Assembly: GCA_003990765.1 (NCBI GenBank) | Contig: RBNJ01000245.1 | Span: 1 to 35,605, forward strand | Direction of reading: 5' to 3' | From: Jimgerdemannia flammicorona | Lineage: Eukaryota | Length of the DNA stretch: 35,605 bases | Shown: piece by piece, positions 1-35,605 of the stretch | How the letters are laid out: every line of letters starts with the position of its first letter | Position numbering within the stretch: position 1 is the first letter of the stretch | The notes under the pieces: generated by a model | Told to the model about the DNA's origin: nothing | The model's input: only the letters and a program-made list of their open reading frames with translations | The model's database searches: none | Translations under genes and position numbers: made by a program

Positions 1-71
1 TTATAGTCTCTTGAACTCCTTTCTTTATTAATATACCAATCTATCCTATATAAATACATTGAGCTCACCCC

Positions 72-5605: not shown

Positions 5606-5684
5606 TGCCTTAATACTTTTCTCCAATAAACAACTTGAAAGTGTGTTGTAAAAGTGTGCATAATGTAAATTATAGTAGAGAGAG

Positions 5685-6040
5685 ATACTGGCTATAGCTC
5701 TCTTGCTCCACACTACAGTATGCCAGGCCTTGATTCCACCAGACCTCCCCTGATCACCAGCCCCTCTAGCAGCTATGCAAGTCTCTACAACAGCTGCAAA
5801 GCTCTTAGGAAGGCCCAGACCAGGCCTCCTCCTCTCCAGATGTTTAGAGCTAGAGGAACCTTGACTAGTCATATTACCAAAACTTAATGGTTTTTGCCAA
5901 AACTTATTGTACCTTATAGATAGACTCCTGCTGTATAATATACACTAATGTGATTGAAATAAAAACTTGAAAACATATTGTCTTTTGCTGAAAGATATCT
6001 GTGTGGCTTAGCTTGCTCTGTGGTTTGATCAAAAGAAGTC
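5685..6040 (-). mobile_element. 5' fragment (5'UTR + ORF1 start) of a family A LINE (copy A3), interrupted by B1
   Basis: 5873-6040 aligns closely with the A2 5'UTR at 30534-30703 (GACTTCTTTTG...GCTAAGCCACACAGATATC). ORF1 begins MTSQGSSSSKHLERRRPGLGLPKSFAA, and homology stops at ~5685. Confidence 0.9.
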
Positions 6041-7544: not shown

Positions 7545-8420
7545 TGGCAGAAGCTATGTCTGATATAGATATGTGAGTTCAGTCTGATATGAGGAAGGAG
7601 AGAGCACAGGCAGTGGACAAGGTAATAGTGAGAGAATGGGTGAGTAGTAGAGAGTATGAAAAGGAGTATACTGAGCAGGGCCAGGTGAGCAAAAAAGGTA
7701 AGGTACAATAGAGAGACTGTACAGAGCATACCCCAGTGTATCTTTATAATAGAGAGAGATGTATCTTGATAGAAGGGGTCAGTTTTAGAGACAGAGAGAG
7801 TGAGGGTGATGTGGGTTGGATTAAAAATATTAGGGTGAAAGATAATACTATAGTGAGATCTGAAAGAAGACATTGAATGAGTCTTACTATGTAAGTTCTC
7901 CAGATTACAAGAAGCTAACATATGCTAATGACATTGCAGATGCCAGAGTGAGGTTGTTGTGGTTGAATAAGTGAAGAAGGCTAATTAGACACCAAAGGGT
8001 ACTAAGATTGATGAGAAGGTGGAGCCAAGTGGACCAGATGCCTAACTGATGTTTGATACTATAGATAATGTGTGGCAGCTACTGTAGACCAAGAAACAGA
8101 ATATTGAAACCAGTGTTGATGTAGAGAAAATAGACCACAGAGAGATATTATTTGATGGTCAATAGTTGGAGCCATTTAAGAGCAAGATGATAGATCTAAT
8201 ATATTAGCACCAGTTCAGAAACAGGTAGGGGGCTTCTGGAGATATTGTTGCTGCCATAGAGGGCATAGAATTGGAGGAAGTTCTATTGTCTAAAATATTA
8301 TATATTGTGTATCAATCTTGCCATACCAAACTACAGAAAGAAGGTGATGATGGAAGGAAGTTCAGCATAGAGATTGTACCAATCACTGTTAGATATATCT
8401 GTGCATTAGGAGTAAGGTAA
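7545..8420 (-). pseudogene. Tyrosine recombinase of the Ngaro/DIRS element (truncated)
   Basis: ORF 7469..7921 contains SKTDPFYQ (cf. SKTDPFRQG) and LNSHIYIRHSFCH (cf. YxGHSFRxG), ending at the LINE junction. Confidence 0.85.
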
Positions 8421-8429
8421 TGAAAATGT

Positions 8430-9950
8430 GAGAGGTCAGCATAGAATAGTGTGTCAGTAATACTGTTTTCTTTAGTGAGGATTAATGAGGCAAAGAGCTG
8501 AAAGGAGTGCTAAGCCATCAGGAAATATAATTGTTAAAGTAATTTGAGTAACCAAGGATTGTAAGAAGTACCAGAATTAATTATCATAGCAATGGCCTAG
8601 TTGTCAGCATGAAGTAGAATCTACTAAAAATGCCAGTGATTACCCTGTATAGCAGAGGTATCAACAATGACATAGAGTTCCTTAAATTGAATATCAAGAA
8701 GAATGACAAGAGGCTATGATTTAGAGAACTATTAGTTGTTGAAGAAAGTACTGAAGCCAAGATCACCACTTGTATTCATCCAAATATGAGCATCTGGGGA
8801 GTGAGACCAGGTGATCAGATGAATAACTTGGATACTATTCTAATGTAGAAGAAAAAGCAATCTACTACCAAATATCAGTATAACAAGTCCTATTAATAAT
8901 GATGTAGAAGAAAGAGTTGTCAGTAAGTAGGACAATGAGGCAGTATAGGAATTGACAACCAGGTAAGATGATCTTACATATGATAGCAGGAGAGCTGATG
9001 AGAGATTGCAGCTATGAGTGAGTACATATAGTATATGATAACTATTGATATAGAGCTGACATTATGGCATCTAGTTTGCCAAGAGAGGGGTAAGTTTCCT
9101 TAGTAATAGAGTTCAGTTTGATGCTCAGAAAAACTAGGGAGATGATGAGACCTTCTATCTTAGGTATCTGGGTAGACCAGCCAAGATTATGACAGAGGGA
9201 AAAGAACTGATATAGATTGTGAGGGGCATCAATTAAGGTGGAAATAATGAGTAAGTTGTCAATATAGTGTAAGAGAAAGTAAATGCCATGACAGCCAGCA
9301 ATTCAAGCTAGCAGTTCAGCAAAGAGATTAAAGAGAAAGAGAGAGAATAAAGTACTGAAAGGTACAAAGCAGTCAAAGTAGAAGCAGCTGACCCATTCAA
9401 TGCCTAGTAATTTCCAATTGGCTGTATAGATGAGAATGTCAATAAGTACTGGCAAAATCTATCTTTGATAAGAGGCAACCTTTGTCAATATGAAGATGAG
9501 ATCAAGAGTCTTGTCAAAGTACATATAAGAGAGGTAGAAGATATCAGAGTCAATACCATTATTAACAAAGCCACCTTAGCAGAGCCAAAAAAGATCATAG
9601 ATACAATGCCAAGCTGATATAGAGTTCTTTTTGGCTATAGCACCAAGGGGGGATGAGCAGAAGTTGATAAAGAGAGGAAATTAGAAGGGGCCACAGACTC
9701 TGCTGATATATACCTCATGTGTAATATTGGCTATGATGGCTTCAGTATAGTTGAGGACAGAGTGATAGTTATGACTGAGGAGGTATTTATGAGGGCCTAT
9801 GAATCCAAGAAGAATACCTTGTATAATGATGGTAATAGTGGTTTGGGAGAGGGATTGGTTGAGATATGTTTGTAATTCCCAATCCCATACAGTGGGGTGG
9901 AGTACAATGAGTAGAGGTAGAAAGTATTACATGATGTCAAGGTCAGAGAT
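8430..9950 (-). pseudogene. DIRS-type reverse transcriptase + RNase H
   Basis: Eroded RT motifs FCSSPLGAIAKK, WHCIYDLFW, LSKIDFASTY, FYFDCFVPF..SLFLFNLFAE and LHYIDNL (YxDD). RNase H motifs HIWMNTSGDLGFS (cf. WTDASG.GFG) and LHADN. Confidence 0.85.
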
Positions 9951-10049
9951 AATATAATGGACAGTAAGTGGACAGTGAAGAGTAGTGTTCAGAGCAGCTA
10001 TAATATAGACAAATGGCATTATTACTTGGGTGGGGGTAAGTTCTTAGGA

Positions 10050-11440
10050 GTGTCAGAGTGAGTTATGGGGACATTGAGTCTATGGGTAATCTTCACTACA
10101 ATGGGAGCATATATGAGCATAAGTATAACCTTTTTGACAGTAGCTGGGGTCCTTTATAAGAAGTCTATCAATAAGAATACTATTGAAGGAGTTGCATATA
10201 GGCTGCTGGTTTAGAGAGTTTGGATGAAGAGATATCACCATTCAATAGCTGGCAAGAGAGACCCCAGAACTTTGAGTATGATTTTGGAAGATAACCAGTA
10301 TTAAGGGAAGTACAAGGATATTGATATAGGCTGAGAACTATGAAGAGATTAGGGTTACATTGGGTCTAGTGAAGATACTAATTGAGCAATATACATATCA
10401 TTATTAGTGATCTCAGCAATATATTTTATATAGAAAGACATATGATAGTTAAGAAGAGTAGACCAGAAAGAGGATGTTGAAAGGAGAGTGAAGTTGGCAG
10501 AATAGGTGAAGAATGGTGTAGAATCCATGAGATGAGGATAGACATTATGGAGGATGCTGAAATAGATAAGGAGTATAGATAGAAAAGAAGGAATATCAGG
10601 GAGATCTTTGATGAGATATAAGAGCTTCTATATAAACATCCATGTGCCAGCTTCATCAAGAGACTTGATAAACTAGGTCTCTAGAGGGGGGCCATTCAAG
10701 ATGATATTATGTTCAAGAAAACAGCCAAGTGTGGTAGCAGAGAACAAATTATTGACTACTGTAGCAAGGAGATATTAGTTGATATAGATATATTTCAGGA
10801 AGAGATTGATACCCCAAACAATAGTATAGGATAGAGCTGCTGGGTGTTTTGTTAGTATAGTAGACAACTTACTATGAGGGATACTAGAGAGATCTTGGTC
10901 ATTGAGCAGGAACTACTATAGGGGGCTAAGGAATGATCACAATAGTAGCAGAGATAGAAGCTATAGTATAGTTAATGAATACTTGATCAACAATAGGTGT
11001 GCTGGACCCAGGAATTACTTGCAGTTAATCTTATTAGAAATGTAACAGGAGGAGGATTTCATTGAGTTGATAGTCCTGTATGGTGGAATGATCTTGAAGC
11101 AGGGCAATACTGTCTTCAATAGATACATTAGATAGAAGTAAAAGTATCATTGAGACAGATGCAGTAGAGGTAAAAGAGACTGATAGAGCTGGAGCTTTGT
11201 CCATAGCTTGAGTGGAGGATCGGATAGAAGTAATATAGCTGGCATGTCTTTAGAGAGATTGGTAAGATAAGTTTTGATGATATCAGTATTAGTGTTATTG
11301 TCATTATTGAGATTGTCTTAGAGAAATTGAAGAATATACTTAATGAATATAATATTAGAATGGAGTAGGCAGGTGGGTGAGCCTAACTTATGTTTACTCT
11401 TAGAGATATTAGAGAGATTGTGATGGCAGAGAATGTAGGA
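10050..11440 (-). pseudogene. Ngaro gag-like ORF with C-terminal Cys/His finger
   Basis: 10069-10200 reads C-N-S-F-N...C-Q-K-G-Y-T-Y-A-H-I-C-S-H-C-S-E-D-Y-P-*-T-Q-C-P, the Cys/His pattern typical of Ngaro ORF1. The upstream part is heavily eroded. Confidence 0.65.
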
Positions 11441-11704
11441 GTTAATAGCCAGAACTATAGTAAAAATAAGTATATATACTGAGCATATATATAAAGTATA
11501 TATAAGAAGTACTTGAGTAAAAACCAGATATGAAGCTAAAATACATATTAGACAGTGTAATAGAGAGATATTTTCTAGCTAATATAAAAGTAAGCATGTT
11601 GGCACCAAAGATCTATATTATGCCAAAACCCTTGCACTATCTATACAGTATCTGAAACATTTCTGTGACTATTGATCTGTGATTTCTAATAAAACCCCTC
11701 ATTA

Positions 11705-13378
11705 TAAGTATTCTTATTAGATTAATCTAATTGAAATCTCAGCTATTTCATCTATAAATGAAATCCAAGGAGAGTATTTATAAATATACTAATCACATTA
11801 ATATTCTAGTAAATCAGATAAATTCTCTAAGAATACTAGAAGATAATATCAGTAATAAAGATAAAATTCTGGCTCTTATATAAGGTCTTCTCAAGATATC
11901 TAATATTATAATAGTAGTCATAATAATATGAGAGTAGGAAACTTATAGACTATACTTATATAACAATAAGTCTTATTAATAAAAAGATATATTAAGAAAA
12001 TAGTAGCAATATTGAAGATAAGAAAGTATTCTACAGATTATACAGATGAGGCAAAAAGTACCAACAAGGCAAAATTTAATAGAAACTACTATTACTATAT
12101 TGAATATAGATATATATAAAATAATTACTATTATAAAGATAAAGAGTATGATGAAAATAAGTATAGAAGTCAGTGTTGATAATGTGGAAGCAGTAGAAGG
12201 AAATTTGATAGCTAAGAGTAATATAATATAAATACTATCAAAACTGATAACAATAGTGATATATTTTTTTATATAAGTAATATCTATATATATATATCTA
12301 TCAATAGGACTATAGTCAGTAAAAATACTAATACTACTAATAATAATGATATTTAGCTTATAGATTTAGGTACTATATAATATATGTATAACAGTTTACT
12401 AAGAATAGTTCTCAATATATGAGATGTTTGAATGTCTCATATCTATTAAGTTAGGTAATAATATATCATATATACTCAAGAAAGAGAAAATATCAGTATA
12501 TATCTCTATAGGAATATCACAAAGTCTATCAGTATTTTTTAGAATATACTATATACTTTGAAAATAGAAAAGAATTACTTTTTAATTAGCAAAATGATAA
12601 CCCATAGTGATAAAAAAAATATATATACACCTGATGAGAGCAATAGTATATAGTTTGAAGAATAATAAAGAGATTATAATAATATTAAAATGAGGCAACC
12701 TTTATATAATCAATAGTATACCAAGTGATATAAAGATATCTATATATATAATAACTACATCTGATATATCTAATATATGGTATCAATGCTTGGAAAATAT
12801 AGAGAAATTTAACTTAGAAAAGATGATTAGAAATAGATTAATATGAGAATTACTGACAATATACCTTAATGATAAATTTTGTAAGAATTGTATAGTAAAT
12901 AAAGTATTCCAGTATCTTTTTGAGAAGTAGATAATATATATATCCAGTATATTTAATTTAATCTATATAGATATATGTAACTTAATATATACTACTTTCT
13001 ATAGAAAGAAGAGATATTTTATCATATTTATCAATAACTATATATATAAGATATAGGTATATTCCTTATTAGTAAAGAGTAAAGCCTTGGATAAATTCAA
13101 AAGAGTTTTAAGCAATCATAGAGAATTAAACAAAATGTAAAATATATATTATATATTCGAATAATATATATAAATATATCAATAGTATATTTAAGTAGTA
13201 TCTGAGAAAATATAATATATACTATTAGATAACAGTACTATATACACTATAGTAGAATAGTATAGCTGAGCAATTTAACTATATAGTTATGGAAATAGTA
13301 CAAATGATAATCAATGTAACCAGATTATCATATTCTTATTCAACTGAAGTTATCAATATAGTGGTATATATATATAAC
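11705..13378 (+). mobile_element. Outer Ty1/Copia element, gag-protease-integrase part (very eroded; 5' LTR not in view)
   Basis: Relic protease motif IDxGxT..MY (~12358-12390, cf. DSGATxHM), WYQCLE (~12778, cf. WHxRLGH), IYIDIC (~12961), RYFIIFINNY (~13012) and YT..QNxxAE.FN (~13240-13280). Confidence 0.8.
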
Positions 13379-13515
13379 TATTATAAAATAGAGAGAAAGA
13401 AGCAATTGTTTATTAATTAAACAAGTTGTACTTTTACATATTAAGATTAATAATATAGATAAAGATTAGCTATACTACTATATATTAAGATATAATAGAA
13501 ACTTAGATTTTAATA
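13379..13515 (-). repeat. 3' LTR of inner Copia
   Basis: Aligns with 21722-21850. The termini TATTA...TAATA are eroded TGTTG...CAACA, and a purine-rich PPT relic lies at 13516-13526. Confidence 0.88.
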
Positions 13516-15314: not shown

Positions 15315-16841
15315 TCCCATATATCTAAGCCACCAGGAGGGTGAGTATCCCAAATTTTGGAGGCCACAAGCATAGGCTCTAAGGAGCACTAATAGGTGTA
15401 TCTCATCTCTTAGGTATAGGAGTCCCATATGGTCTTTTCAGCATGGCCATAGCTTCCAGTTTCAGCAACTTACAAAGATTTCAAGAATTTCAGGCAAGAT
15501 GACAAGACAGTAAGATGGTAAGACAGCAAGATGGCAAGATGAGCAAGATGACAAGACAGGCAAGAGGGGTAAGAGGGGTAAGATGGACAAGATGGATAAG
15601 ATGGACAAGATGGCAAGACAGGTGACAGGAGCAAGATAGGCTGACAATAAGATAGGCAACATGGGCAATATGGACAATATGGGTGATATGGGCAATACAG
15701 ATAATACAGACAATATGAACAACACAGGCAACACAGGCAGGCAAGATGGGCAAGATGGACAAGATGGGCAAGATGGGCAAGATGGTAAGACAACAAGATG
15801 GATGATATGGATAAGACAGGCAGATAGTAAGATAGACAATAGAGGCAAAATAGGCAAAATAGGCAATATGGGCAATATGGGCAATATAGGCAATATGGAC
15901 AATATGGGCAACATGGGTGGGCAAGATGGGCAAGATGAGCAAGATGGGCAAGATGGGCAAGATGGGCAAGATGGGCAAGATGGCAAGATGATAAAATGGA
16001 TGATATGGGCAAGATAGGCAAGATAGGCAAGATAGACAAGATTAGTAAGATGGACAAGATGGATAAGATGGCAAGATGGTAAGATGGGTGACATGGGCAA
16101 GATGAGCAGATGGCAAGACAGATAATATGGACAAGATGAACAAAACAGGCAAAATGGGCAAAATGAGCAAAATGGGCAATACAGATAATATGGGTAGATA
16201 ATATGAGCAATATGAGTAATACAGACAATATGAGCAATATGAGTAATATGGGTAACATGGGTAATATGGGCAATATGAGCAACATGGGTGGGCAAGATAA
16301 GCAAGATAAAAAAGATGGACAAGATGGCAAGATGGGCAATATGGGCAAGACAGGCAGATGGCAAGACAGGTGATATGGGCAAGATGGGCAAAATGGGCAA
16401 AACAGATAACATGGGCAATACAGGTAACATGGGCAACATGGGTGAGCAAGATAGACAAGACAGGTAAGATAGATAAGATGGGCAAGATGACAAGATGGCA
16501 ACATGAGCAATATAGGCAATATGGGCAGATAAAATAGATAAGACAGGCTAGATAGACAAGATAGAAGACACTAATAGGAGTAGGTCAGGTATACTAGATG
16601 CCAAGTACTTGAGGTGGTTGGAGCTCACAACCCATACTCACTAGGTGAGGCAGGTCAGGTAAGAGGATCTAGTTACTCAGGCAGTGAGGTTGCAACTCAT
16701 ACCCTAAAGGTATAAGGCTAGATGAGTGTAAAGGTGGGTTGAGATTAGAATGGAATGGAGCTACTGATGTTATATGAGAACATGTGGCATATTATAGATA
16801 GTTAATAAATGAGGCTACAGCCTATAGAAAAAAAAAAAAAA
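15315..16841 (+). mobile_element. Non-autonomous VNTR-containing retroposon (SINE/SVA-like architecture)
   Basis: AATAAA at 16804-16809 and poly(A) at 16828-16843. TSD AAGTACTAATATAATTCAC (15296-15314) versus AAGTACTGATATAATTTAT (16842-16860), three transitions apart. The Copia sequence is continuous once it is removed. Confidence 0.85.
15491..16568 (+). repeat. Degenerate 9-bp minisatellite (GGGCAAGAT / GGGCAATAT, with 8-bp variants)
   Basis: Directly visible tandem array of about 1.08 kb with alternating blocks of the two unit types. Confidence 0.97.
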
Positions 16842-17595
16842 AAGTACTGATATAATTTATATAATATTTGCAGTTGCAATGAGATGTCTTAGATATGTCC
16901 TAATAACCTCCTAAATCTACTTCAACTTTATTTTGTAGCCTAGATCTATACTTTTTCTTACCTTTTAGAGAGGTATTCTCATTACCATTCTTATCTATAA
17001 TTTCTATAATTCTTAGCTCCAATAGTCTCATTAGTATATATATAGGCTACACTACTACTGTAAGAGGGTTGCTTTTTAGGATAACTGTTACGTAGTTCTG
17101 GAAGGGTTTTCGGGAAGTTCTGGATATTCTGGAAGTCCATTTTCTTATGGTCAAGATCAATTTCATATAGAGTACGTCCTCTACACTTATTGATTTCTAG
17201 ATCGGGTTAACATCTCAACCAAAGTCCTTTTTCAGACTAGTTCTGGATGTTCAGGATTTTCCATATTTCAGGAGTTCAAGAAACTAAGACCAGCTTAGTT
17301 GAATTGGCGTATTGCTGCAGACAATACCCAATTAGGAAATTTCGTGATGGAGTTAGGAGTGGGACCTAACAGGGAGTAGATTTACTTAAGAGTGGTTTGT
17401 AGGTTATTGAATAGGTTTATTTGCTATTCATGATATTGCTATACTAGGAGTAGTTGTGTAAAGGGATATTGTGGGGAAGTATTCAAGAATGTTCTTGTGT
17501 ATTCGAGTCTCAGATTCTGAGGTCTGGGGGGTGGTATTTATACTAGTGAGGAGCTATCTGGACTATACTGAATATGGATGTAGCACTAAGTGCCT

Positions 17596-17701
17596 TGCTG
17601 AGTCAGAATGCAGTCATGTAGTACAAGTGTGATCTAACATATCAAGAGATTGTCTGACTGCTGAGTCAGTTCACAGTCACATCGTACAAAGCTAATCTAA
17701 C
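17596..17701. promoter_or_regulatory. 63-bp-period duplication, each unit with TGCTGAGTCAG (AP-1/Gcn4-type site)
   Basis: TGAGTCA at 17599-17605 and 17662-17668, just upstream of the minus-strand TATA box. Confidence 0.55.
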
Positions 17702-17731
17702 TATATTATGACTGCTAGGCTATTTATGGGT

Positions 17732-18829
17732 TTAGGTGCTATCTGGGTAGTCCTCAATGACATCACCATTGATGACATCATCTCTGATGAAGTAGTCATC
17801 TAAGAAGAGTAGTTCATGGATTACTTCTCCTTGTTTGCTGAGGTAATAATACATTGGGACCTCGTCTCTATCCCATAAGATAGTATTGTCTGTCTCATAG
17901 GCTGGATAAGGTATTGGTGGATGAAGGATGGGTGTATTGTCTTTGCTTTCATTGGATTCGCTATCTGCATACCTTCTATAGGTTACAGCACTATGAGTTG
18001 CAGGATTGTAGTAAGCTAGTGGCTGTGGTTCATGTCACTCGTACTCAGGTGGTGGAGTGGTTGGTTTGATCTCAAGGGTTGTCTGGAGGTACAGGTTGTG
18101 TTCTCTGGTCTCTTCATTGTAGTTGAAGTAATTAGAGATGAATGCAGGTTGATATTCATGCCAGTGGTCATTGTCCCAATAAGTCTCATATACAGTTATG
18201 AACTGTTGTAAGTTCATCGGCAAGGTTGGCGGAGTGATCAGGGTTGGTAGAGATCCTTGGCTAGAGGTCATGTTGGTGTCAGAGGGACCATTGTCTTCTG
18301 CTTCATCTTCATCAAAGTGGATTATATTGTAGATGTCCTTCATGGCATATCCAACTTGGGGCATTTGCAGGATATGATCATTGGAGTGTGGAAAGGTTCT
18401 GTCTGTGGTTTTGATATACTTGAGGTACTTCTGGTTGAGTTCTTGTATCATGTCATCGATTTGGCCATAGGACAAAGTAGCAACCATTTTGCTGGTAGTA
18501 ACTCGAAGGCGGGGAATAATGGTACTGTACTTATAGAAGAGTTCTCAATGTTTGCAGGCAATGAGCTTCTGGTGTTGAGACATCTGGGTAATGTCTGTAT
18601 TGTGGTGGTGTTTGATCATGTCTTCCAGGAGGCAGCCAATCTGGTAGTAGCTTGAGATTTGTCCGATTCAGTGGGCCTTGCTAAGTATGTTCAGAGTATT
18701 CCATCGGGCTTCCATGAAGTAGAGGGGTGCTAGACTATGGATATTCATGAGGGGCAGAGGGGGTGTGGCTTGGTTAACAATGGCATTCCAAATGTCAGCG
18801 CGGATATGGATATAGATCTTGGTGGTCAT
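17732..18829 (-). pseudogene. 365-codon ORF of unknown function inside the LTR-like element, with three in-frame TGA
   Basis: Manual translation MTTKIYIHIRADIWNAIVNQ...DVIEDYPDST* in a single frame with no frameshift. It includes track ORF 18035..18487. TGA codons at 18668-18670, 18545-18547 and 18035-18037 are each one transition from CGA. Confidence 0.8.
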
Positions 18830-18946
18830 GTTTGTATATTTGGACATTGTAGTTGTTGTTTGTTTGGGTTCTCTGATTCGATGTGTCTTGGTACTCGGTA
18901 TATATGCATTTGGTCCTGATTGGTAAGATTCCGTTTGTGTAAATCT

Positions 18947-19010
18947 TGTGCTCTGTGACTTCGTATTGACTCAGCTTTATGTGCTGTGACTTCGGTTTGA
19001 CTCAGCTTCA
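18947..19010. promoter_or_regulatory. ~31-bp tandem duplication, each unit with TGACTCAGC
   Basis: TGACTCA at 18967-18973 and 18998-19004, upstream of the LTR ORF ATG. Confidence 0.55.
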
Positions 19011-21705
19011 TGATCAAGCAGGTGATTTCCAGATTTGTTCAGAGGTCGCGTGTGATTTCAGTGGCTTGGAGGTTGTGTGCTTACAACTACTGGTATAGAT
19101 ACTGAGGATATCTTTTTCAGAATTTTAACTACTGTTCTGAATATAGAAGTTTTTTACTCATCTTTGAAGTTAGTATAGATGTCACTGGCTATATTATTGA
19201 GTTGGATATAGAGATTGGAATTTTTATATAAATTTTCTACTTAGTCTCCTTGAACTGAATATTATAAGAGATAATTATATAGTATTTCTGTAAGTTCTAT
19301 AGTCTTATACAGCTCTGTTATATTTAAGAAATATATACTTATCTGACTTAAGCTTAAATTTATCTTTATTGTTACCTTTATTTAGAATATAAGTCTTACT
19401 TCCAAATATCTATAAATATGAGATATCTGACTTAGATTTACTTTATAATTCTTCAGAGATAAGATTAGTATCATTTCTAGATTATTGATTATTGCCAGAT
19501 TTCTTACTAAAAGCTTGAGAAATATAATAATTTTGGATATATGTATACTACTGTATTCACTGCTTTGGCCCAAAAGGAGTATAATAGCTAGCTATATTTA
19601 TTATCATTTGAGCCATCTCTGCCATTATTTAATTAAAGTATTATATTCCACAGTTCTGCTGAGATATATAGGGTACCATTATAGTGTATTGGATACTATA
19701 CTTCTTTAAGAAGTATCTGAAAACTTTATTGATATATTTCTTACCATTATCAGAGCATAGAGTCTATATCTTATATCTTATTTTATTTTCTATAATTGTC
19801 TTAAATTCTTGAAATTTTTCAAATATCTCATTCTTCTCTATAATAGACTTTATAAGTATAATTATCAATAAAGATAATAAAATATCTCTTTTTAGAGTAT
19901 ATTAGAGTTTATATAAGACTATAGATATTTATATATATTAGATCAAGAATATCAGTTACTTGCTTCATCTATTTCTGAAAAGGTCACTGAGAAGTCTTAT
20001 TGACTATATATTTATTGCAAAAGCTGAAATCTGGTGATATATAGTTTAATAATATATATACAGATTTATTACTTATTACCTGTTCTAGGCTTATCTTACT
20101 GATATATTTTAAGTATTTATACTACATATACTAGAGATTCTCTCTAATTATAGTTGCAGAATATATAGATAATATATTACTTAGTATATTGTTAATTATA
20201 AGTTTCTCTTTTTTGATATATATATTAACTTCTTATTATTCTTTTGATTGATTATTATTATAATATTTAGATATATATTTACTCCTCTGTCTCCTTAGAC
20301 TATTATCTGGCCTATTGAGAAGAGATTATTACTTATACATATCTAATATATATAGTATATTCATGAAGGTATCTAAAGGTTTATCAATATTGTTCTTATC
20401 TTAAATATAGATGATATTATTATTACCCAGTTTAATAGATATAGAGTACTCAAACTTCTCATATATAGAGGACTACTTACAGAACTATTATATACTGTAT
20501 TATACTAGAATCTATGAGCCAGACTTCTTCTCTATATATATAAGCACTATTCAGTATATAGTTTATATTGGTACTGATACTATTGATATTAATATCAGTA
20601 TTTTTCTCTATCTGAAATTATTTTTCCAAATTCACCCCTATATCTCTCTTTATATATCATAGGTTATTACTTCTGTAAAGAATAAACCTTTACTACCACT
20701 ACTTTCATTACTAGTATTTATTATATTTGTCTACTATTGTTCTTATTACTATTAAATGCTCTTTTCTTTCTTATAATTACAGTTCTACTCATAATATCTA
20801 TACTTATTATAGTTAAAGTATTTACTTTCAAATTTCTGACTATTATATTACTGGCTTTGATTTTGCTCTTTTGTTTAGCTTGCCTTTATCTTATCTATAT
20901 ACTCTGTAGAAGACTTTCTCATCACTATCCTCATTAGTATCATTGCCATTACTACTCAGTCTTGATTTCTTTAAAAGGTATATAATGATATACTTATAGT
21001 CCAATAATCTACTAAATTCCTTCATAGTAGTGATAATAATGTTGTATGTCTTAGAAAGGCCTCATACATATAAGGACCAGGACTTGTCTTTGTCCTTAAT
21101 AGTATCTATCAGCATAGATATAAGAGAGTTTACTTAATTTGCTAGCTCATCAACTTAATTGGTATAGTCCCAGATACTCTCTTTAGACTTTATTTAGAGA
21201 TTGAACAGTTGTACTTTTAGATGAAATCTATTTGATACAGATGTCTATTGATAGTAATTATATAAAATCTTTCAGATATTATTCTCTATTATAGAATTGA
21301 TTATAAGCTTCTTTTGTATATTTTAAAGAATGAATATAATCTCTCTTAGTACTTTGTGATATTTTGTAGTATTATATCTCATTATTTATATCTGTGACTT
21401 TCAGTAGTCCTCTAAACCACATTCCTCTAAGAGATTCTTCATATTATATCTATATAGTTTAATTCTTACTATTGAAGATAGAAATAATTCTCTTTAGTAT
21501 TATTATTAATACTACTAAAAGAATGGTTATAGTTATAACTATCATAATAGATGTACTTATATTATCAGTATCTGTTCTGAGTTCTGTTCTACTTATACTA
21601 TCTGAAACTAGTATACTTCTACTACTAGTATTAGTCAATATTGTATAATATAGTATATTATATATATTTGAAGAATATCTATATTATTATTTACTTTTAT
21701 CTGTA

Positions 21706-21721: not shown

Positions 21722-21850
21722 TGTTGTAGAATAGAGAGAAAGAAGTTTGATTAAGCAAGTCATGCTTTTTTATATCAAGATTGATAATATAGATGAAAAT
21801 TGACTGTACTACTATATATTGAGATATAATAAAAACTTATATTTTTAATA
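21722..21850 (-). repeat. 5' LTR of inner Copia
   Basis: TGTTGTAGAATAGAGAGAAAGAAG...TTTTAATA, a direct repeat of 13379-13515. Confidence 0.88.
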
Positions 21851-23982
21851 ATAACTGATATATATTTTGAGTATTAAGCAAGAAATCCAGCAATAATAGT
21901 AAGTGTTCCAGAGATAATGATCTTACTTCTAAAGAATTATAGAGTAGAATAAAGAAAGATATATATATACTTCTATACATATTTAGATATAATATATATA
22001 TTCTTAATAAGAGTAATGCTAATCAGTATAAGTTTAAGCTAAAGTGAGTAGATATATATTTCTTAAATATTTTAGCAAAGTATATCAACTCTGGAATCTA
22101 TATAAATATTATATATATAGTAATCTTATATAATATATAGTTCAATAAAAATAAAAAAAAAACAGAAACTCTATATAAATAAATTTATCAGAACCTCTAC
22201 TTTAATATCTTAATATATAAGTATATATAATATCTAATATCAATCTCTTCAATAAAGTAAAATTATTTTCAACTATTATATATATATATCTAAGTAAAAG
22301 TTACCTAAGCTAAGTATAATAAAGAGTATAATTTACTTATTGAGAATGATATATGAGATTTAGTATAAGAATGATAGAAGTATAGAGTAATATAAAGTAT
22401 ACTTTATTGTTCAAGGTTATTTATAAGATTATAGTATTAACTATAATGAGATATTTTTGCTAATATTTAAGCTTACTTTTCTGAGAACACTTCTTATAAT
22501 TGGTACTATATATAATCTGAAAATCTATTAGATAGATATAAAGATGGCTTTTCCTAATAGTGATATAGATATGATTATATATTTGCTAACTATAAGAATA
22601 TAACCAGAATAACCTATTATATAAACTATATAAAGAACTATATATATGGTATCAAGCAAGCAGTTTATTTATAGAGTAGAAAAATCAATAAATATCTTTT
22701 TAATAATGGCTTCATATATTGTAAAGTGAATAACTATATATATATTCAATATTATACTATTAGAGTAGCTTTCATCAATATTTGGATTAATAATATAATC
22801 ATTATTATAATGAAGAACAGATTTAGTAGAGTTAAAGAAGTCCTGTATAAGAAATTTAAGATGACTAATATAAGTAACATATTCATTGTTTTGAAGATAT
22901 CTATTATATATAATGAGAGTATATATATTATATATATATATATATCTCACAGTTAGCTTCTATTCAAGTTATCTTAGAATAATTCAGTATAAGTAAATAT
23001 GTATAAGCCTATTAATACTCCTATGGACATATCTGTGAAGTTAAAGAAGCTTAAGACAAATGATAATAATAATAATATTCTTTATTGATAAGTAGTCAGT
23101 TCTCTCATATATGTACATATCTTATATTAAGAATAAGATCTGATATTTTATATATTATAAATAAGATAGTACTATACTCATCATACTATAACAATTGGTA
23201 TTAGATTATTATTAAGAGAATTTTTAAATATATTAAAGAAATAGTATACTATATACTTACTTTTGATAAAGTAAGTAGAAGCAATAGTAATAATAATAAT
23301 AAGAATAGCATACAACTATTCAACACATATAATACTGATTGGACTAGAGACTTAGATGATTACTGATCTATAATTAAATATTTCTATTAGTTAAATAATA
23401 AAGGAGTTATTTTATAACAAATATATAAGTAGAATTTAATAGTAATATTATTTATATAAGTAGAGTACCAAGTATTATCTATAGTAATAAAGGAAGCTAT
23501 TTGGCCCTACCAATTACTAAAGGCTCTAGGCTTTGATCAGAAATGAAACCCTATACTCATCTATTAGAATTACTAATTTATGATTGCTATGGCAAAGTAC
23601 TCTATATATTACTCCAGAATAAAGTATTTAATGTATAGCACTATTATATAAGGGAGTGCATGAAGAATGAGACTATATACTTGAAATATATCTCTATGAA
23701 GTATATGATTACAGATTCACTTAACAAAGTTCTTTTGAGATCTAAATTCCAGCAATGTACTAAAGAAATGAGTTGTATAGTAAACTATATACCAGCAATA
23801 GATAATGGATAATTATGTGATATTTCATAACAAAAAGGAAGCAGAAAAACAATACAATATATCTCTCTCTTCAAGCATTATTTTGCTCTATTCCATTCTA
23901 CATTTGAGGTTTTCTACCATTAGGACCTATCTATATTCTTCATTTTCACTATAGTTTCATATGTTTTAAGCATAGGTAGATA
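21851..23982 (+). mobile_element. Outer Ty1/Copia element, integrase C-terminus, RT-RNase H and 3'UTR
   Basis: Resumes after the TSD ATAAC. Relic D.KMAF.NSD (~22530-22570), YGIKQA (~22645), YSRIKY (~23610) and MITDSL.K (~23705). The 3' LTR is not reached before LINE A1. Confidence 0.8.
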
Positions 23983-24150
23983 GCATTCTTTTACAAACCA
24001 TTCTGAGCGAGCTAAGCCACACAGACAACCTTTTGTGAAAAGCAACACATTTTCAAGTTTTCACTTCATTCATACTGGTGTGCAAGGTGCGGCAGAAATC
24101 TGTCAATAATTCACAGCAAGTTTCATCCAAATCTGTCAAGTTTCAGTGGT

Positions 24151-24900
24151 ATGGCGACCCAAGGCTCATCAAGCTTGGAGTGCCTAGAGAGGAGGAGGCC
24201 TGGCCTGGGCCTACCCAAGAGTTTTGTGGCAGCAGCTGGTCAAGGAGGGGCTGGGGGACAAACAGGAGGTCGTGGATCAGTAGCAGGACTGGGTGGATGG
24301 CACACAGTGGTGGGGAGTAAGCTGGTAGCTGCTAGGCCTGCAGTTGGGGGGCAGCAGGGGCATAGTGTTAAGAGGGGTGGACATCAGGTGACTGGTCAGC
24401 TGACTGGCCAGAGACCCAGCAGGGGTCAGGGGTCCGGGGGTGTGATGGCTGGGACTGGCTTTCCTGGGGCTGGGCCAGTGGCTGGAGGTGAGACTGCTGG
24501 TAGTGCAGTAGCTCCTAGCGAGATGGTGGCTGGTATATCTGGTAGCAAGAACAAGGCAACCCTGGCAGTAGAAACTGGAGAGCTGGTGGTATAACCATTC
24601 TTCCATAAGTCAGTGTCATCATGGGCAGTCTCCACCAACTTCTTGGGCCTTGGTCTGTCAGTCAAGGAAGTTTTACGGCTGGTGGGTGAGGAGGTTGCTG
24701 GGGCTGAGTCACTGAGGTATATCCCCTTGGCGGAGGCAGTTGAGGTCAGATTTGTTGAGGAGGAGGCCATGGTGAAGGCCTTGGAGAAGGGGTTGATGGT
24801 CAAGAATGTTAAGGTGGGGATGGCGAGGTGCCTGAGATGGGATCCATATGCAGTGAGGTTAGTGGTAGAAGGACTGCCAACGCTGAGTAGGCAGGAGACT
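24151..24900 (+). pseudogene. A1 ORF1, 5' part
   Basis: Track ORFs 24151..24594 and 24613..24993 are homologous to 29751..30533. Confidence 0.88.
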
Positions 24901-25022
24901 TTTTTTTTTTTTTTTTATATTACCTTGGACTCCTTTATTACGAACTATCTAATACAATATCAACTAACCACAACCACTACTAACATCATATAACATATAT
25001 AAGTAGAGCCCTTCAACCAACT

Positions 25023-28000
25023 TCAACCAACTCCTTCCTTCCATCTCACCCCTTGATCATCTAAAATCAGATACCCTCGACTCCTCTGTACAATGTCCTG
25101 TACCTTCTTTAAGGCCCCTGATTGAAGTTGCTTCCCCTGATACCACTATCCCTGAACCACCTCCTGGAGAAGCCACCTCCACTACTCCACCATCTCACCA
25201 ATCTCCATCCATAGGTCCTGTTCAAAAATCCACCACCAATGTACTGCCATCAAGACCCAGACCCCCAAAACTTGACCAAGGCCCCCCCATATATCACCAA
25301 TTTCCCCTATTAGCTGGTGCTTGACCACCAGACTGGTCAGATCCTCTGCCCTATGCCTCTCAGAGCCCCAGTAATCTTCCAAACACTGCCAAAATCCTTC
25401 CACACCTGGGCAGGCCCCCAGAATATGTTCTGGTGTCTGAACCACTCCTCTATCAATCTCATCACACCACTTGCAGTCCCGACAGCCATCCACCTCCATC
25501 CAGCCAGTCCAATAGCCCAGCATCACATTATGTCTTAAAAATCACCACCAAACCACCCAATATTTGGATGGCACCATCTAGTGTACTGAGGTTCCCCAAT
25601 TCCAAATTCTAACCCACTCCCAGTCTTCACTGATACCAGCTCTCTGCCACCCAGGCAGCCATCTCTCCAGAGGGCCAGACCTGATCCACTCCATTGCCTC
25701 AATCAGGGAGTACTCCTTCAGACTATGGCCACCAACATGAAGGTCTCCCAGTCGCCACCACCTCTGCTCAGGATTCTTACCCACCTCAATCTCTGGGCCT
25801 GTCAATCCCATGGCCAGCCAGGCCTCTACAATACCCCACCAGAACTCCTTAAACCACAGTCAGCCTATACTTCTAACTTGAAGCAAGCCCCACATATTCT
25901 TCCAAACCTCACCACGAGGGCAGAACCAGACCTTCCAATTGTCCATGGTCAGCCTGCCCCAACCTTCTTCACCTAGTTCCATCATTCGGCACCACCACCA
26001 GCCCCGAAGCACCTTCAGCCAGCATCTGAAATCCACCAACCCCAGGCCTCCATCTGAAGTCCTCATTACTAAAGTCTCCCATCCAATCTGCAGACGCCTC
26101 CCCTGTCATAACCACCCCTCAACAATCTTCTTCAACTGCTGCACCACCCACCCTGGGAAATCCAGATGATAACCCAGATACCACAGTTTGGGCAGCCAGT
26201 ATACATTCAAGACCACTATCCTGCTGACCAAGGAGAAGCTCCTCCCTGACCAACCTGTCAGAGCACCTTCCAGCCTCTGAATTAAACCACACCACCACTC
26301 CTTTGGCAGGACTGTCCCATATACTGAGAACCAGATACCCAGATATTGAACCACACTCCCTATGGCTACCAATTGTCCAAATTGTCTATGACCCCCCAGG
26401 CCAGCACCAAGTTCCATTGTCTTGCACTTGCCCCAATTCAACTTTGCCCCTGCCAGTCTCTCATACTGTCCAACCTCTTCTTGCAGGGCTTCTACATCCT
26501 CCTGACTACCCAACCCTACCACCATATCATCTGCAAAGGCACCCAGCTGCCAGACCACATCTTCCATCTTCAGTCCTGAGAGCTGCCCCTTCAGCCATGC
26601 CAGCAGAGGCTCTAGAGAAAGTACATAACGAAGGGGGGAGAGAGGATCCCTCTGCAGTACCCCTTGCCCCAAGGCAAACTCTGGTCCACACCATCCATTC
26701 ATCATGACCACTGCTTGGCATCCCCGTACTAAGCCCATCAGACACCCTGCCTCTATAACACCAAACCCAGCCCTCCTCAGAACAGCCTCCAGATAACTCC
26801 ACTGCACTCTGTCATAGGCCTTCTCTTGATCCAGAAAGACCATCTGGCCATCCACCCACCAGCTCCTACAGCTCTCTAAAATATTCTACACCCAGGCAGT
26901 ACTATCTCTGATCTGCCTCCCCTTGACAAAGCCATGCTGCTCCTCCCCAACTAGTGTACCAACATACTGCTGCATCCTCCCTGCTAGAATCTTCGACACC
27001 AACTTTCTATCCACATTCAGCAGCATAATAGGCTGCCAATTATGCCACACCCATCGATCCCCCTTTTCCTTATATAGAAGAGAGACCAGCCCCAAGGGAC
27101 CATTGCCTATCCAGCAGCCCTCCTTCAGAACAGCATTGGCCATCTCCACCAACCAGTCACCAAACTTGGCCTTGAACTCCTTCCAGAATTCCCAGGGCAA
27201 CCCATCCTCTCCTGGTGACAAACTAGTCTGCATCTTTCTCAGTACTTCCAATACTTCATCCAGGGATACCTTTCCCATGACTGCTTCCCCTATCTCAGGT
27301 ATCACTGTCACCAGCCAACTGTTCACCATATTGTCATTATCTACCTCAAACTCTGTGCCCTCCGACTACTCCCTGCCATCCTGCCAAAGAGCCTACCATT
27401 GGCCAGATATCTCCCCTAATATCAGTAATTCCAGAGACCTCTACTCCATCTTCACACAAAACTGAAGCCTAGCTATATCATACTCTCCTGGCCTTCAAGA
27501 TACCAGACAGATATCTCATCGGTCTCTCTCCTTCTTCCAACTGTCTGACTTGTAGCCTGGCCAGCAGGCCATCTACCACCCTGGTCTCTGACACCTTTAA
27601 ATCTACCTGCAACTCAGCCACCTCTAATGCCAAATGGTGGCACACCTCCCCAGACAAGTTCCCCTTTTCCAAGAGCTTCAATCACCATCTCAGCCCCTTC
27701 TCCACCCTCCTTTATTTGTCCTTCTGTTCATTCCCAGTCACTTCTCCAACATCATGCCAGTAAGCACCAGCCAAGTGTTTGAATTTACCCCACCATTCCG
27801 CTATCAACTGCCCTTCATTCTGCCATTGCCTAACTTCCTGTTTCATAACTACTACAAAATTGTCCCTCTCCTTCTTCTTCTGAGTAAGGCCACATTGAGG
27901 CACCAGTGTCCACTACCACTGCCTGTATCTTGGAATCTCCCGCAAACCTCCACTCCCCAGTGATCTGACCAAGGGCACCAGTGCACCTCAGCAGTGTCCA

Positions 28001-28652
28001 AAACATTACCCCAGCACTCCGCCACTAGCACCCAGTCTATTCGTGTCTCAACCAAGGTTGTTCCCACTGGGTGCTACCTGGTGAAAGGTCCCACCACATC
28101 TCCCTGCTGCTGATGAACACCATCCACCAAGCCCATGTCTCACTCCACCTGAAGCCATTGAGAAAGTCCATGTGACACCATGACTTCTGCTCCACCATCA
28201 GATCTGTCCAGTGCTCGATCACGTACCATATTGAAGTCCTCCTCCAAAATGTCCAAAGCAACTACCTCCCGACCATCCCATGCCTGCCATCCCTCAACCC
28301 ATTGCTTTCACTCTCTGCTAACTGCAGGGAGGTAAACCGATCCAACCGTCAAACCATCACCTGCCCCTCCTTTTAGTCTTCCCCAAATTAGTCTGTCACC
28401 GAAGCTCTCCACCTCCACCAACTTGTCTTTGTCTATACCAATTAAGATTCCCACCTGCATATTCCAACCTGCTCCACCATACCATTCTTTACTCCAAATC
28501 TCATAGTCTGACTCACCATAAGCCCGAACATCCTGAAGAAACATAACATCATACCTCCTGACTTTAAGCCATCTGAAAAGCCGCCATCTTTTAACACCAT
28601 CCTGCAATCCATTGACATTGATTGATAAAATACGTAGATTGTTCATCATCAT
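25023..28652 (-). pseudogene. A2 ORF2: APE endonuclease, RT, CCHC domain (stops, local frameshift ~27450-27880)
   Basis: LRILSINVNGL, FLQDV, TRIDW, WSDH, SPGEDGLP, DQEKAYDRV, FADD, and CKWC...TPEHILGAC. Confidence 0.93.
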
Positions 28653-28664
28653 TAAGGAAGTTGT

Positions 28665-30533
28665 TTAAAGCTCAGCTGGAACTACCACTACCTTCTCAGC
28701 CCTTCCTCTAATGATCTCCTGCTAGTCCTCACAAATCGCCCTCCAGATTTGATCACTATTTTCACTGTTGCAGAACAGGTCCACTCTTTCTGCTGCCACC
28801 TTCCTGATGTCAGCCATTTGGTTCTCATCAACATCATATCCTTCATCATCCAGAAGGGCAGCTACCATCACCATCACCAGCTTAGGCCCCTACATCGCTA
28901 CCTTGAGAAATCCTTCCCATACCTCCTGAGATCCATGAAATACATCCACTTCCTTGATATCCTCCTCAGCCAGCTCCTCCAACACTGCCTGGTACCAACT
29001 CTCTGCCATCATCACCAGGGGCCCAGGAGTTGAAGGCCTGGGGGTTTTGCTCAGTTCTTGCAGTTGTTCTCTGTCTGCCGACACATCAGAAGCCACATCC
29101 ACCAGCTCATCCTCCTCCACCACCTTCTCCAAATGGATTACCTCCCTAGCTTCTGGGCACTCCCAATGCACATTCACCACCCCAGCCATATGGGTGTCCT
29201 CCACCTAAGTTTCCGGCACCACCTCAGCATCAACCTCAAAGCCTCCTTCACCAACCTCCTCCTTATCTGCCCACTTCCCTCTCACTGGTGCATGTGCCGA
29301 GTCCTCTACACCACCCATCTGAGAGAAGGACACCTCTGCCACCTCCACTCCTTCCATCTGATTCTTGGCCGCCTCTACTCTTGTCTCCTCTTCCACTGCC
29401 ACCCCCTGAAGGGCTACCTCTAGATGCTCCCAGTTCTCTTTTCTCCACCTCTTCCACTTGCCATCTGCCTCGATCCAGACCCAATCCTTTGTGTACTCCT
29501 CCCACTTCCTCTTTCGCAGCTCCTTGGCAGCCTCCCTCTCCTCCAGAGCGATTGCTAACTCTTCCTCCTCCTGTTCTGCTCCCTTCCTCCTCCACACCTT
29601 GCACTCTTGCCCCCCAATCCTAATCCCTTCAGGCCAATCATGGCCCAGCCCAGTTGCCTCCTTGCCTTCCAAATACAGCATCACCTTGCAGTTACCATTC
29701 TGCAACTTGGTGCTCTCCCAGAGCATGAATCCGAAGTCCACCATCTCACATTATCCACCCAGTGCCTCCACCACCATCTCCTTGGTCTCCTGCCTGCCCA
29801 GAGTAGGCAGTCCTTCCACCACCAGCCAAACAGCACATGGATCCCATCTCAGACACCTCGCCATCCCAATCTGGACACCCTTGACTGTCATCTCTTTCTC
29901 CAGTGCCTTCACCATTGCCTCCTCCTCCACAAATCCAATCTCCACAGCCTCTGCCAAAGGGATGAACTTCAGAGACTCTGCTCTAGCCACTTCCTCCCCC
30001 ACCAGTCTCAGAACCTCCCTTGCTGACATTGCCAATCCCAGGAAGTTCACCAAGATTGCCAATGTTGACACCGATTTATGAAAGAAGGGCCTCACCACCA
30101 GCTCACCAGTCCCAGCTGCCAGAGGCACCTTTCCTTTGGCCCCCAAAACACCAGTAGTTGTTCCACCAGGTATAGCTGTACCACCCACAGTCTTCTCCCC
30201 AGCCATCTGCCCAGCTACAGAAGAACCAGTCCCCAGCATCACGCCACCAGACCTCTGTCTCTTGCCAGCCACCTGACCTGTCACCTGACTTGTCACCTGA
30301 CCTCTCCCCCTGTCAACACTATGTCCCCCCTGTCCAACCCCCATGGGCCTAGCTGCAGCCCTCCTATTCCCAAACACTGTATGCCAGGTCTCAATCCCTC
30401 CAGTCCTCCCCTGCCCACCTGCCCTTCTAGCAGCCACACCAGCCCCTGCAGCAGCTGCAAAGCTCCTGGGAATACTCAGACTGGGCCTCCTCCTCTCCAG
30501 ATGCTCAGAGCTAGAGGAATCTTGACTAGCCAT
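28665..30533 (-). pseudogene. A2 ORF1 (~622 codons, a few premature stops)
   Basis: Track ORFs 29751..30533, 29205..29744 and 28890..29204 share one frame. Confidence 0.88.
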
Positions 30534-30720
30534 GTTGCCAAAACTTGACGGTTTTCCTTGAAACTTATTGTGCCTTGTAGATAGACTCCTGCTGCACGAT
30601 GTACACCAATATATTCGAAATAAAAACTTGAAAACATGTTGTCTTTCGCTGAAGGATATCTGTGTGGCTTAGCTCTCTCCAAATGGTTCAAGCAAAAGAA
30701 GTCCAAGTAGGCAGGAGACT

Positions 30721-31839: not shown

Positions 31840-31853
31840 ACTCCAAATTTTCC

Positions 31854-35492: not shown

Positions 35493-35605
35493 TTGAACTT
35501 GTAGGTTTATTTCACCCAGATAGTATGGGATAGGATGTTGGCAGGTTATCTTTGTGGTTAATTCATATAGACTAGTGGAATAAAGGAGTCCAAGTGACTA
35601 TAAAA

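Follow-up and report, generated by a model that had tools for sequence, protein, structure and literature searches.

The extra genes of LTR retrotransposons normally lie in the internal region and are lost on LTR-LTR recombination, and a gene borne by the LTR is unusual because such genes normally sit between the repeats. In retroviruses, sag of MMTV is a sense ORF placed wholly in the LTR and expressed from a spliced RNA, while the accessory coding sequences of lentiviral nef and spumaviral bel2/bet start internally and only overlap the U3 of the 3' LTR. In plants, the additional ORFs (aORFs) of LTR retrotransposons, among them Grande gene23, those of RIRE2 and Retand and env-like ORFs, are described in a review as family-specific, without database relatives and kept in most copies; they are internal, for the most part placed downstream of pol and ahead of the 3' LTR, and frequently in antisense orientation, and the review has no wording that puts an ORF in, within or inside the LTR (PMC7264820). 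A word search of the open-access literature, whose outcome is not proof of absence, turned up MMTV among the retroviruses and reviews on aORFs of the internal region, but no LTR retrotransposon whose LTR holds a gene.

Layout of the repeat and its gene

The window, i.e., the whole stretch of 35,605 nt that was analysed, contains one copy of a repeat whose sense is the minus strand. Its features are given below in sense order; the duplication, the boxes and the poly(A) signal are placed from the sequence only, with an empty-site-like contig adding to the downstream copy of the duplication.

19086..19090, minus strand: target-site duplication, upstream copy, GTAGT
17059..19085, minus strand: solo LTR of 2027 bp with TGTAAG...CTTACA termini and steps in contig depth
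18945..19007, minus strand: two tandem 31-nt units, enhancer-like, with TGASTCA at 18998-19004 and 18967-18973
18899..18904, minus strand: TATATA box in the context CATATATACC, putative ORF promoter, about 70 nt upstream of the ORF
17732..18829, minus strand: ORF of 365 codons plus TAA for an orphan protein, broken by three TGA
17596..17701, minus strand: two 43-nt units, 63 nt apart, with TGASTCA at 17599-17605 and 17662-17668
17535..17542, minus strand: TATAAATA box, candidate promoter of the genomic RNA, with the putative U3/R border about 30 nt downstream
17416..17421, minus strand: AATAAA poly(A) signal, putative end of R, with U5 probably from about 17400 to 17059
17054..17058, minus strand: target-site duplication, downstream copy, GTAGT, with the empty-site-like X1 contig

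The start codon of the ORF is 256 nt into the LTR, and the ORF lies wholly between the LTR start (19085) and TATAAATA (17542); it ends about 190 nt before this box, with AATAAA 121 nt beyond, the order of signals that the initial annotation had reported downstream of the ORF. These motif positions, and these only, support a U3 position of the ORF, upstream of TATAAATA...AATAAA. Because the ORF lies entirely inside the LTR, each element has it twice and a solo LTR still contains it; in this it is like MMTV sag, a sense ORF of about 320-365 codons lying wholly in the LTR, upstream of its TATA box, and hence found in either LTR and in a solo LTR. It differs from sag in the lack of sequence similarity (no Sag family membership in Pfam at E <= 10), in an acidic protein with no apparent signal or anchor segment, in a host that is a soil eukaryote and not a mammal, with no sign of env, and in a possible promoter of its own inside the LTR. 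With nef and bel2/bet it would have in common an accessory coding sequence in U3; unlike in those genes, the frame is closed within the repeat: with TGA read as sense it is open over 17735-18976, and the stop that closes it, at about 18977, is over 100 nt from the LTR start. A family-specific orphan ORF of no assigned role is also what the plant aORFs represent in that review (PMC7264820), although the present one is found between the LTR termini with their duplication and not in an internal region. Ordinary Ty1/copia and Ty3/gypsy solo LTRs have the same TG...CA ends, 5-bp duplication, U3-R-U5 signals, repeated enhancer-like units and high copy number, whereas here the LTR measures 2 kb and 54% of it is a conserved coding frame.

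With moderate confidence, we read the locus as belonging to a high-copy LTR family that carries a family-specific 365-codon gene in U3, in the orientation of the element, with a putative promoter of its own and a probable accessory product, the window copy being a dead solo LTR. The promoter of the gene, at the 5' end of the LTR, would consist of the two TGASTCA repeats and the TATA box that precedes the ATG by about 70 nt, and the gene would end at the LTR's own AATAAA. Of the six TGASTCA sites of the window, the LTR has four, grouped in two pairs that each precede a TATA box by 50-120 nt, and these four are not independent because all are within related repeats: the units at 17596-17701 are related, in inverted orientation, to those at 18945-19007. 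The number of 31-nt units varies among copies, and a contig of X10, a run that may be of RNA origin, skips 70 nt at 18945-19007.

The inverted arrangement of the repeats also bears on a different origin of the gene, namely a passenger cassette from about 19006 to 17597 (1.41 kb), either a small TIR element nested there or a piece of captured DNA, which would have entered the U3 of a once shorter LTR and hitch-hiked with it since, and whose protein would serve the cassette or nothing, not the retrotransposon. The four best inverted repeats in the LTR all pair 17597-17693 with 18945-19006, with 74-80% complementarity over 20-34 nt and perfect 9-nt outer ends, two repeat pairs that face each other in inverted orientation could mark an insertion, and an X10 contig leaves the window sequence at 17635, within the region. 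The two units per arm are reminiscent of the IR-DR ends of some Tc1-like transposons; of the hallmarks of Tc1/mariner-like elements, inverted repeats with repeated units are found here (17597-17693 vs. 18945-19006), while a TA duplication and a DDE/D transposase are not. TGASTCA is itself palindromic, which inflates the inverted matches, the outer ends have no target-site duplication (flanks ...ATGAA and AAGGC...), and there is no transposase or other Pfam domain even at E <= 10. Moreover, among the six joints listed no cassette-less contig unites the outer ends, and an ORF open across subfamilies at 65% identity is unexpected for a pure passenger unless the cassette is itself active. On balance we consider such a cassette unlikely.

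The same gene-carrying LTR could also lack a promoter for the gene, which would then be translated, as for MMTV sag, only from a spliced subgenomic RNA initiated in the 5' LTR and extending into U3 of the 3' LTR, with solo LTRs silent for the gene. Every full-length transcript has U3 in its 3' end, and the upstream TATA box may be just a motif; by eye, though, no obvious pyrimidine-tract-plus-AG acceptor directly precedes the ATG, and the repeat-plus-TATA layout occurs twice in the LTR. Expression of this kind appears improbable to us.

The upstream TATA box and the paired TGASTCA repeats, as motifs, suggest that every LTR may be a gene complete in itself. With its own promoter and the LTR's AATAAA, the gene would turn each LTR into a full transcription unit next to the canonical TATAAATA promoter for the genomic RNA, formed by the enhancer-like repeats with their TATA box, the 365-codon orphan ORF and the LTR poly(A) signal. 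An extended form of this reading, in which every LTR of the family is such a gene and solo LTRs keep making a protein that acts in trans for the family, would have the family scatter many expressible copies of one gene, whose product could for instance activate LTR promoters or counter host silencing by CpG methylation; we regard it as distinctly doubtful.

Boundaries of the element

The reading as an LTR starts from the ends of the element. Read on the minus strand, TGTAAG (19085-19080) and CTTACA (17064-17059) form a 6-bp imperfect inverted terminus with GTAGT on both sides, and the TG...CA termini and the 5-bp duplication reported in the initial annotation are thus confirmed. At both ends, summed contig depth goes from about 5 to more than 1000 in the bins holding 17059 and 19085 in all four public runs (3294, 424, 416 and 302 contigs per run, aligned at 80-100% likeness), and sharp boundaries common to all runs are those of a dispersed repeat. 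Summed depth is lower over the ORF than over R-U5, a measure that cannot rank parts of the element. An X1 contig joins 17039 to 19160 through 30 other letters that resemble both flanks and a single copy of the site, and looks like an empty site.

Other copies show candidate flanks of an internal region. Past the 3' end (17059), one X2 and one X3 contig have an identical non-window flank that reads, on the minus strand, ACT and then TGGTAGCAGCAG..., a tRNA-CCA complement 3 nt after CA, and looks like a primer-binding site; past the 5' end, one X2 contig has ...AAGAAGGGGAG, three letters matching the window flank and then TG, which looks like a polypurine tract. These flanks come from three single contigs, in runs of one organism and one study. 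Together with the depth steps, they lead us to read the element as a true LTR, as initially annotated, with TG...CA in short inverted repeats, a duplication within the 4-6 bp range and, at the level of motifs, the TATA/poly(A) order.

That the LTR is solo likewise agrees with the window, which contains no second copy in its 35,605 nt, and with the absence of gag-pol nearby, no Pfam domain being found at 7501-12000 on the minus strand and 7501-11400 on the plus strand. A full-length element of the family, a direct pair, gag or pol were not seen in the window or in the contigs scanned. We picture the element as a solo LTR from a high-copy LTR retrotransposon family of a soil eukaryote that is probably a fungus. 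It would have inserted into AT-rich DNA, generating the 5-bp duplication, and recombination between its LTRs presumably removed the internal part together with the second LTR. No tRNA genes or Rfam families are present in the window, and a scan of it for bacterial-type promoters and terminators is irrelevant to a eukaryotic element.

A single copy with its own duplication in the window, together with a family gag-pol that was not found, would fit a non-autonomous 2-kb element that stands alone, is moved by an integrase and carries a gene of its own. The tRNA-CCA-complement flank is, however, identical in contigs of two runs, where random insertion sites would differ, a purine run abuts TG in another contig, the internal direct terminal repeats of TRIM-type elements are lacking, and the TATA...AATAAA order is consistent with U3-R-U5. 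An element other than an LTR is in our view very unlikely.

Coding frame, relatives and predicted product

The frame at 18850-17730 has 373 codons and is interrupted only by TGA at 18670-18668, 18547-18545 and 18037-18035 before the terminal TAA (17734-17732), whereas the remaining five frames have 8 to 32 stops over an equal span; its longest stop-free stretch is 169 aa (18035-18544). The 1098-bp, 365-aa frame of the initial annotation stands if the start is the second ATG (18829), where the relative P0003 also begins, and not if it is the first (18847), which other copies do not share, variants at 18845 and 18846 being present in all contigs. Codon positions 1, 2 and 3 have G at 0.22, 0.10 and 0.14, respectively, and C reaches 0.36 at position 3.

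Two relatives were found, P0002 and P0003, both partial, from contigs of about 1 kb, and with a mutual overlap of only 14 residues; the protein collection holds open frames only, hence an ascertainment bias affects both. P0003 (128 aa) shows 83% identity without gaps and has Arg at two of the stop positions, whereas P0002 (247 aa; 65% identity, 82% similarity), with two in-frame 2-aa gaps only and no stop, has Gln at the third. The three stops initially described as of CGA>TGA type accordingly stand opposite Arg, Arg and Gln. Differences are modestly clustered along P0002 (P = 0.03), and a weak excess of synonymous changes is seen among the listed ORF variants (10 of 21 vs. 5.7 expected, binomial P = 0.037, with more than 600 variant places in all). 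The matches amounted to one among 388 candidates of near length and one among 33 shorter proteins; none of the 818 longer candidates matched, so no fused form was seen, which is weak evidence. A representative protein library returned P0002 itself only, with a 247-position profile that leaves the N-terminal 121 residues outside the query, and no relatives were found among pattern-matched stretches of JGI metagenome contigs (584 for alignment A1 and 92 for P0003), viral contigs (20) or prokaryote genomes (12).

Two diverged open copies and the CpG-type decay of the window copy indicate that the ORF is real coding sequence and not a product of chance. That the frame was never a gene and merely reflects a skewed, G-poor composition, which does make TGA and TAG less frequent as the sense strand has only 15% G, is highly unlikely given that none of 5000 composition-matched, first-order Markov simulations had three stops or fewer in any frame (minimum 8), that two diverged open relatives show conservative substitutions and in-frame gaps, and that composition follows codon periodicity.

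In our favoured reading of a gene-carrying LTR family, the gene would have been kept open while subfamilies drifted to 65% amino-acid identity. The window copy differs from P0003 at 22 places, 17 of which show G>A or C>T on the side of the window copy; changes of these two kinds prevail in it, and many of them are at CpG. With three CpG-type stops and numerous C>T/G>A replacements, this copy of the gene is, judging from its sequence, dead, and the earlier claim that the gene survives LTR-LTR recombination fails for it. Traces attributed to CpG-methylation silencing span the whole window.

The product was described initially as helical in its N half, acidic and Pro/Tyr-rich in its C half and devoid of recognisable gag, pol, env or transposase motifs. 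The last point agrees with the absence of any Pfam, PDB or fold relative: Pfam gave no family for P0001, P0002 or P0003 at E <= 10 and no transposase domain, the two rows from a PDB sequence search had E = 0.35, and the ESM Atlas offered nothing usable for P0002 (whose Atlas model has pLDDT 0.39) and unnamed or unrelated leads only for P0003. AlphaFold2 reached pLDDT 32.1 for the whole protein and 53.8, with four helices, for the N-terminal 128 aa; none of 252 Foldseek matches to the PDB reached E <= 0.001, and with such low model confidence these rows are meaningless. The two halves accordingly hold only as far as a low-confidence model (the helices) and composition go. None of the families, folds or motifs searched gives a lead to the trans-activator or anti-silencing role initially proposed. 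The product may comprise about 145 aa of helical N-terminal domain and, after it, a tail that is acidic and rich in Tyr and Pro, and we take it as a putative accessory factor of the element, regulatory or host-directed and not structural or enzymatic.

Implications for the family

At present the finding concerns the anatomy of the repeat and the coding nature of its frame only. A gene inside the LTR is present twice per element, persists in all solo LTRs and has strong promoters as neighbours. Should this gene be expressed and act on behalf of the element, it would represent a non-retroviral parallel to MMTV sag and a route by which an orphan gene is spread in very many copies, and the LTR family would offer a way to study the interplay of repeats with CpG-directed silencing in a soil eukaryote.

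Boundaries and layout of the element

The unit described in the initial annotation as a solo LTR of about 2 kb (17059-19085, 2027 bp, sense on the minus strand) has the following layout, with all LTR coordinates given in minus-strand sense.

19090-19086 and 17058-17054, minus: pentamer GTAGT, directly outside both LTR ends
from 19085, minus: LTR 5' terminus, read as TGTAAG
19007-18945, minus: two tandem 31-nt units
18904-18899, minus: TATATA box
18829, minus: ATG of the ORF
17734-17732, minus: TAA ending the ORF frame
17701-17596, minus: two 43-nt units
17542-17535, minus: TATAAATA
17421-17416, minus: AATAAA
about 340 nt, minus: remainder, from AATAAA to the terminal CA
to 17059, minus: LTR 3' terminus, read as CTTACA

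TATAAATA and AATAAA are spaced by 121 nt, and the pair fits the canonical U3/R/U5 layout, which would place the whole ORF in U3. Copies in the sequencing runs vary at 17452-17533 by an 80-nt skip and carry several small insertions at 17499-17529, near a run of C that closely follows TATAAATA; in this family, the length of what is presumed to be the start of R thus varies.

Parts of the window stretch are present in 11 public runs, mostly soil metagenomes, none of which contains half of its words. Contigs of four of these runs were aligned to 16500-19650 at a likeness of at least 80% (3294, 424, 416, and 302 contigs per run, mostly 80-99% alike). In all four, summed contig depth in the flanks ranged from near zero to a few tens, leapt to hundreds or thousands in the bin containing 17059 and dropped again in the bin containing 19085. 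Together with the contig counts, these steps indicate a dispersed, diverged, high-copy repeat with the very bounds first proposed from its TG...CA ends and a 5-bp duplication.

One contig each from runs X2 and X3 diverges from the window exactly at the 3' CA and continues into a common foreign flank, which reads on the minus strand ACT and then TGGTAGCAGCAG... In one X2 contig, a purine run ending in AAGAAGGGGAG, plus three further letters matching the window flank, lies just upstream of the 5' TG. The common flank, whose start is complementary to the CCA end of a tRNA, and the abutting purine tract look like a primer-binding site (PBS) and a polypurine tract (PPT), respectively; the first nine letters of the former may resemble initiator-tRNA-type sites. 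Furthermore, a low-depth contig of run X1 connects 17039 with 19160 via 30 letters similar to both flanks, in which the duplicated site occurs once; this contig looks like an empty site, in either a relative or a diverged paralogue. Within the window, neither a second LTR copy (blastn and tblastx) nor an LTR-element Pfam domain beside the LTR was found, and neither a gag-pol of the family nor an LTR pair was seen. The identification of the element as an LTR, solo here as initially suggested, is well supported though short of proof, the flank evidence coming from three contigs in runs of one organism.

A decayed gene encoding an orphan protein

The long minus-strand frame noticed initially comprises 373 codons when translated from 18850 and is broken by only three TGA stops (18670-18668, 18547-18545, and 18037-18035), while the remaining five frames contain 8 to 32 stops over the same span. 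In 5000 first-order Markov simulations of this segment, no forward frame had three stops or fewer (minimum 8, mean 18.3), and the base composition of the ORF differs among codon positions in the manner of coding sequence; the frame is thus not a product of G-poor composition. Its first ATG (18847) is private to the window copy, as all contigs aligned there have other letters at 18845 and 18846.

Only two relatives of the ORF protein (P0001) were found in a large protein collection, both partial and with open frames. P0002 (247 aa; ENA contig of 998 nt) aligns with residues 122-371 at 65% identity and 82% similarity, with two in-frame 2-aa gaps and without a stop. P0003 (128 aa; JGI contig of 1180 nt) covers residues 8-135 gap-free at 83% identity and begins at the second ATG. 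Opposite the window stops they carry Arg at the first two (P0003) and Gln at the third (P0002). No longer, fused form was present among 818 candidates, and P0002 was the sole match among 1.84 billion representatives to a profile of the 247 C-terminal positions only.

When the window codons were compared with P0003, 17 of 22 differences consisted of a window-copy change of G>A (12 cases) or C>T (5), compared with one A>G and one T>C; six differences fell at a CpG within a codon, and several more, read by eye, across codon borders. The CpG observed/expected ratio lies at 0.28-0.35 within the LTR and at 0-0.3 elsewhere in the window. This bias and the low CpG ratio indicate that the window copy descends from an open gene and has decayed, in keeping with the early guess of CGA>TGA changes. 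Of the 40 variants listed out of more than 600, 21 lie in the ORF. Ten of these are synonymous, where the codons and the transition-to-transversion mix (15:6) would predict 5.7 (P = 0.037), and the positions that differ from P0002 show mild clustering (P = 0.03). Because contigs assembled from a high-copy repeat are drawn towards the consensus of its family, the existence of two diverged subfamilies with open frames suggests that the gene was maintained during the activity of the family. The ORF represents a genuine gene of this family, dead in the window copy.

The protein is an orphan. No Pfam family was found in it even at E <= 10, in line with the first impression that gag, pol, env, and transposase motifs were lacking, and no zinc knuckle, protease, integrase, transposase or envelope-like feature was recognized. 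It had no sequence relative in the PDB (best E = 0.35), no usable match in the Atlas and no Foldseek match at E <= 0.001. The AlphaFold2 model of the whole protein, of low confidence (pLDDT 32), places helices through residue 148, one more short helix at 214-224 and, near the C-terminus, two short strands, but hardly anything more, while the N-terminal 128 residues modeled separately gave four helices (pLDDT 54). By composition, the last 220 residues are acidic (pI 4.3, 20 Tyr, 22 Pro). The helical N half of the initial description agrees with the low-confidence model, and its acidic Pro/Tyr-rich C half with this composition. P0001 and P0002 have conserved blocks in common.

Surroundings of the element in the window

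CpG is nearly absent throughout the window (1-35605; observed/expected 0.00-0.35 per kb). In the blocks with 20-25% G+C (about 11.2-15.0 and 19.1-24.0 kb), TpA is in excess and CpA/TpG in deficit as well, a pattern resembling that of RIP, whereas repeats of 50% G+C show CpG loss only; two distinct mutation regimes seem to have acted on the window. The AT-rich DNA into which the LTR inserted may itself be an ancient retroelement altered by heavy mutation: a copia-type reverse transcriptase match (RVT_2, 22675-22953, plus) lies in an AT-rich block, albeit weak (E = 0.0054, below the curated cut-off), and a 99-nt direct repeat, 83% alike, recurs 8.3 kb apart (13413-13511 and 21747-21845). A minisatellite (15493-16565) lies 500 nt away from the LTR in this AT-rich host DNA. 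Its 9-nt unit (consensus GCAAGATGG) is repeated about 114 times, with higher-order periodicities of 53 and 88 nt, and its stop-free minus-strand frames of about 360 codons are probably meaningless.

Decayed non-LTR (LINE-like) elements occupy 24000-35605 and 1-7500, where the strands are extremely skewed (GC skew -0.5 or +0.45), and two copies face each other head to head near 30.7 kb (inverted repeats I1-I4 of the window). Reverse transcriptase pieces at 33465-34130 (plus) and 26109-26885 (minus) match RVT_1, with LINE-1 ORF2p as the best PDB match; the frames become far longer with TAA and TAG read through, which fits C>T decay of Gln codons. The region 7500-11400 has 36-38% G+C, a GC skew around +0.3 and no CpG, and no Pfam domain was found in 7501-12000 (minus) or 7501-11400 (plus).

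Expression, origin and parallels of the LTR gene

Four of the six TGASTCA palindromes of the 35.6-kb window lie within the LTR, as two pairs inside the repeated units, each 50-120 nt upstream of a TATA box; since all the repeat units are related, the four sites are not independent and their enrichment should not be over-read. The two TATA boxes are similar in form, CATATATACC preceding the ORF and GTATAAATACC preceding R. On this arrangement of motifs, the upstream module of repeat units and TATA box would drive an ORF mRNA ending at the LTR's own poly(A) signal, and the downstream module would drive the genomic RNA. Under this preferred model each LTR would be a complete gene. The main alternative is expression via a spliced subgenomic RNA, the route by which MMTV sag is expressed.

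The upstream (18945-19006) and downstream (17597-17693) units are related but mutually inverted, 74-80% complementary, and could represent either shared enhancers or a scar left by cassette insertion. With their perfect 9-nt outer ends, these inverted pairs (I1-I4 of the LTR) bracket the 1.41-kb segment with the ORF and could mark where a cassette long ago entered a then shorter LTR; however, the ends of that segment show no target-site duplication, and it lacks a transposase domain.

In the part of the literature covered, MMTV sag is the closest functional parallel to the window gene, being likewise an ORF in an LTR, but the two have no sequence relation. Additional ORFs of plant LTR retrotransposons are orphans like the window ORF, but internal rather than inside the LTR, mostly between pol and the 3' LTR (PMC7264820). 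A word search of the open-access literature brought up no case of a gene lying inside the LTR of an LTR retrotransposon, which does not prove absence. The window gene is a probable accessory gene sited inside the LTR of a non-retroviral element.
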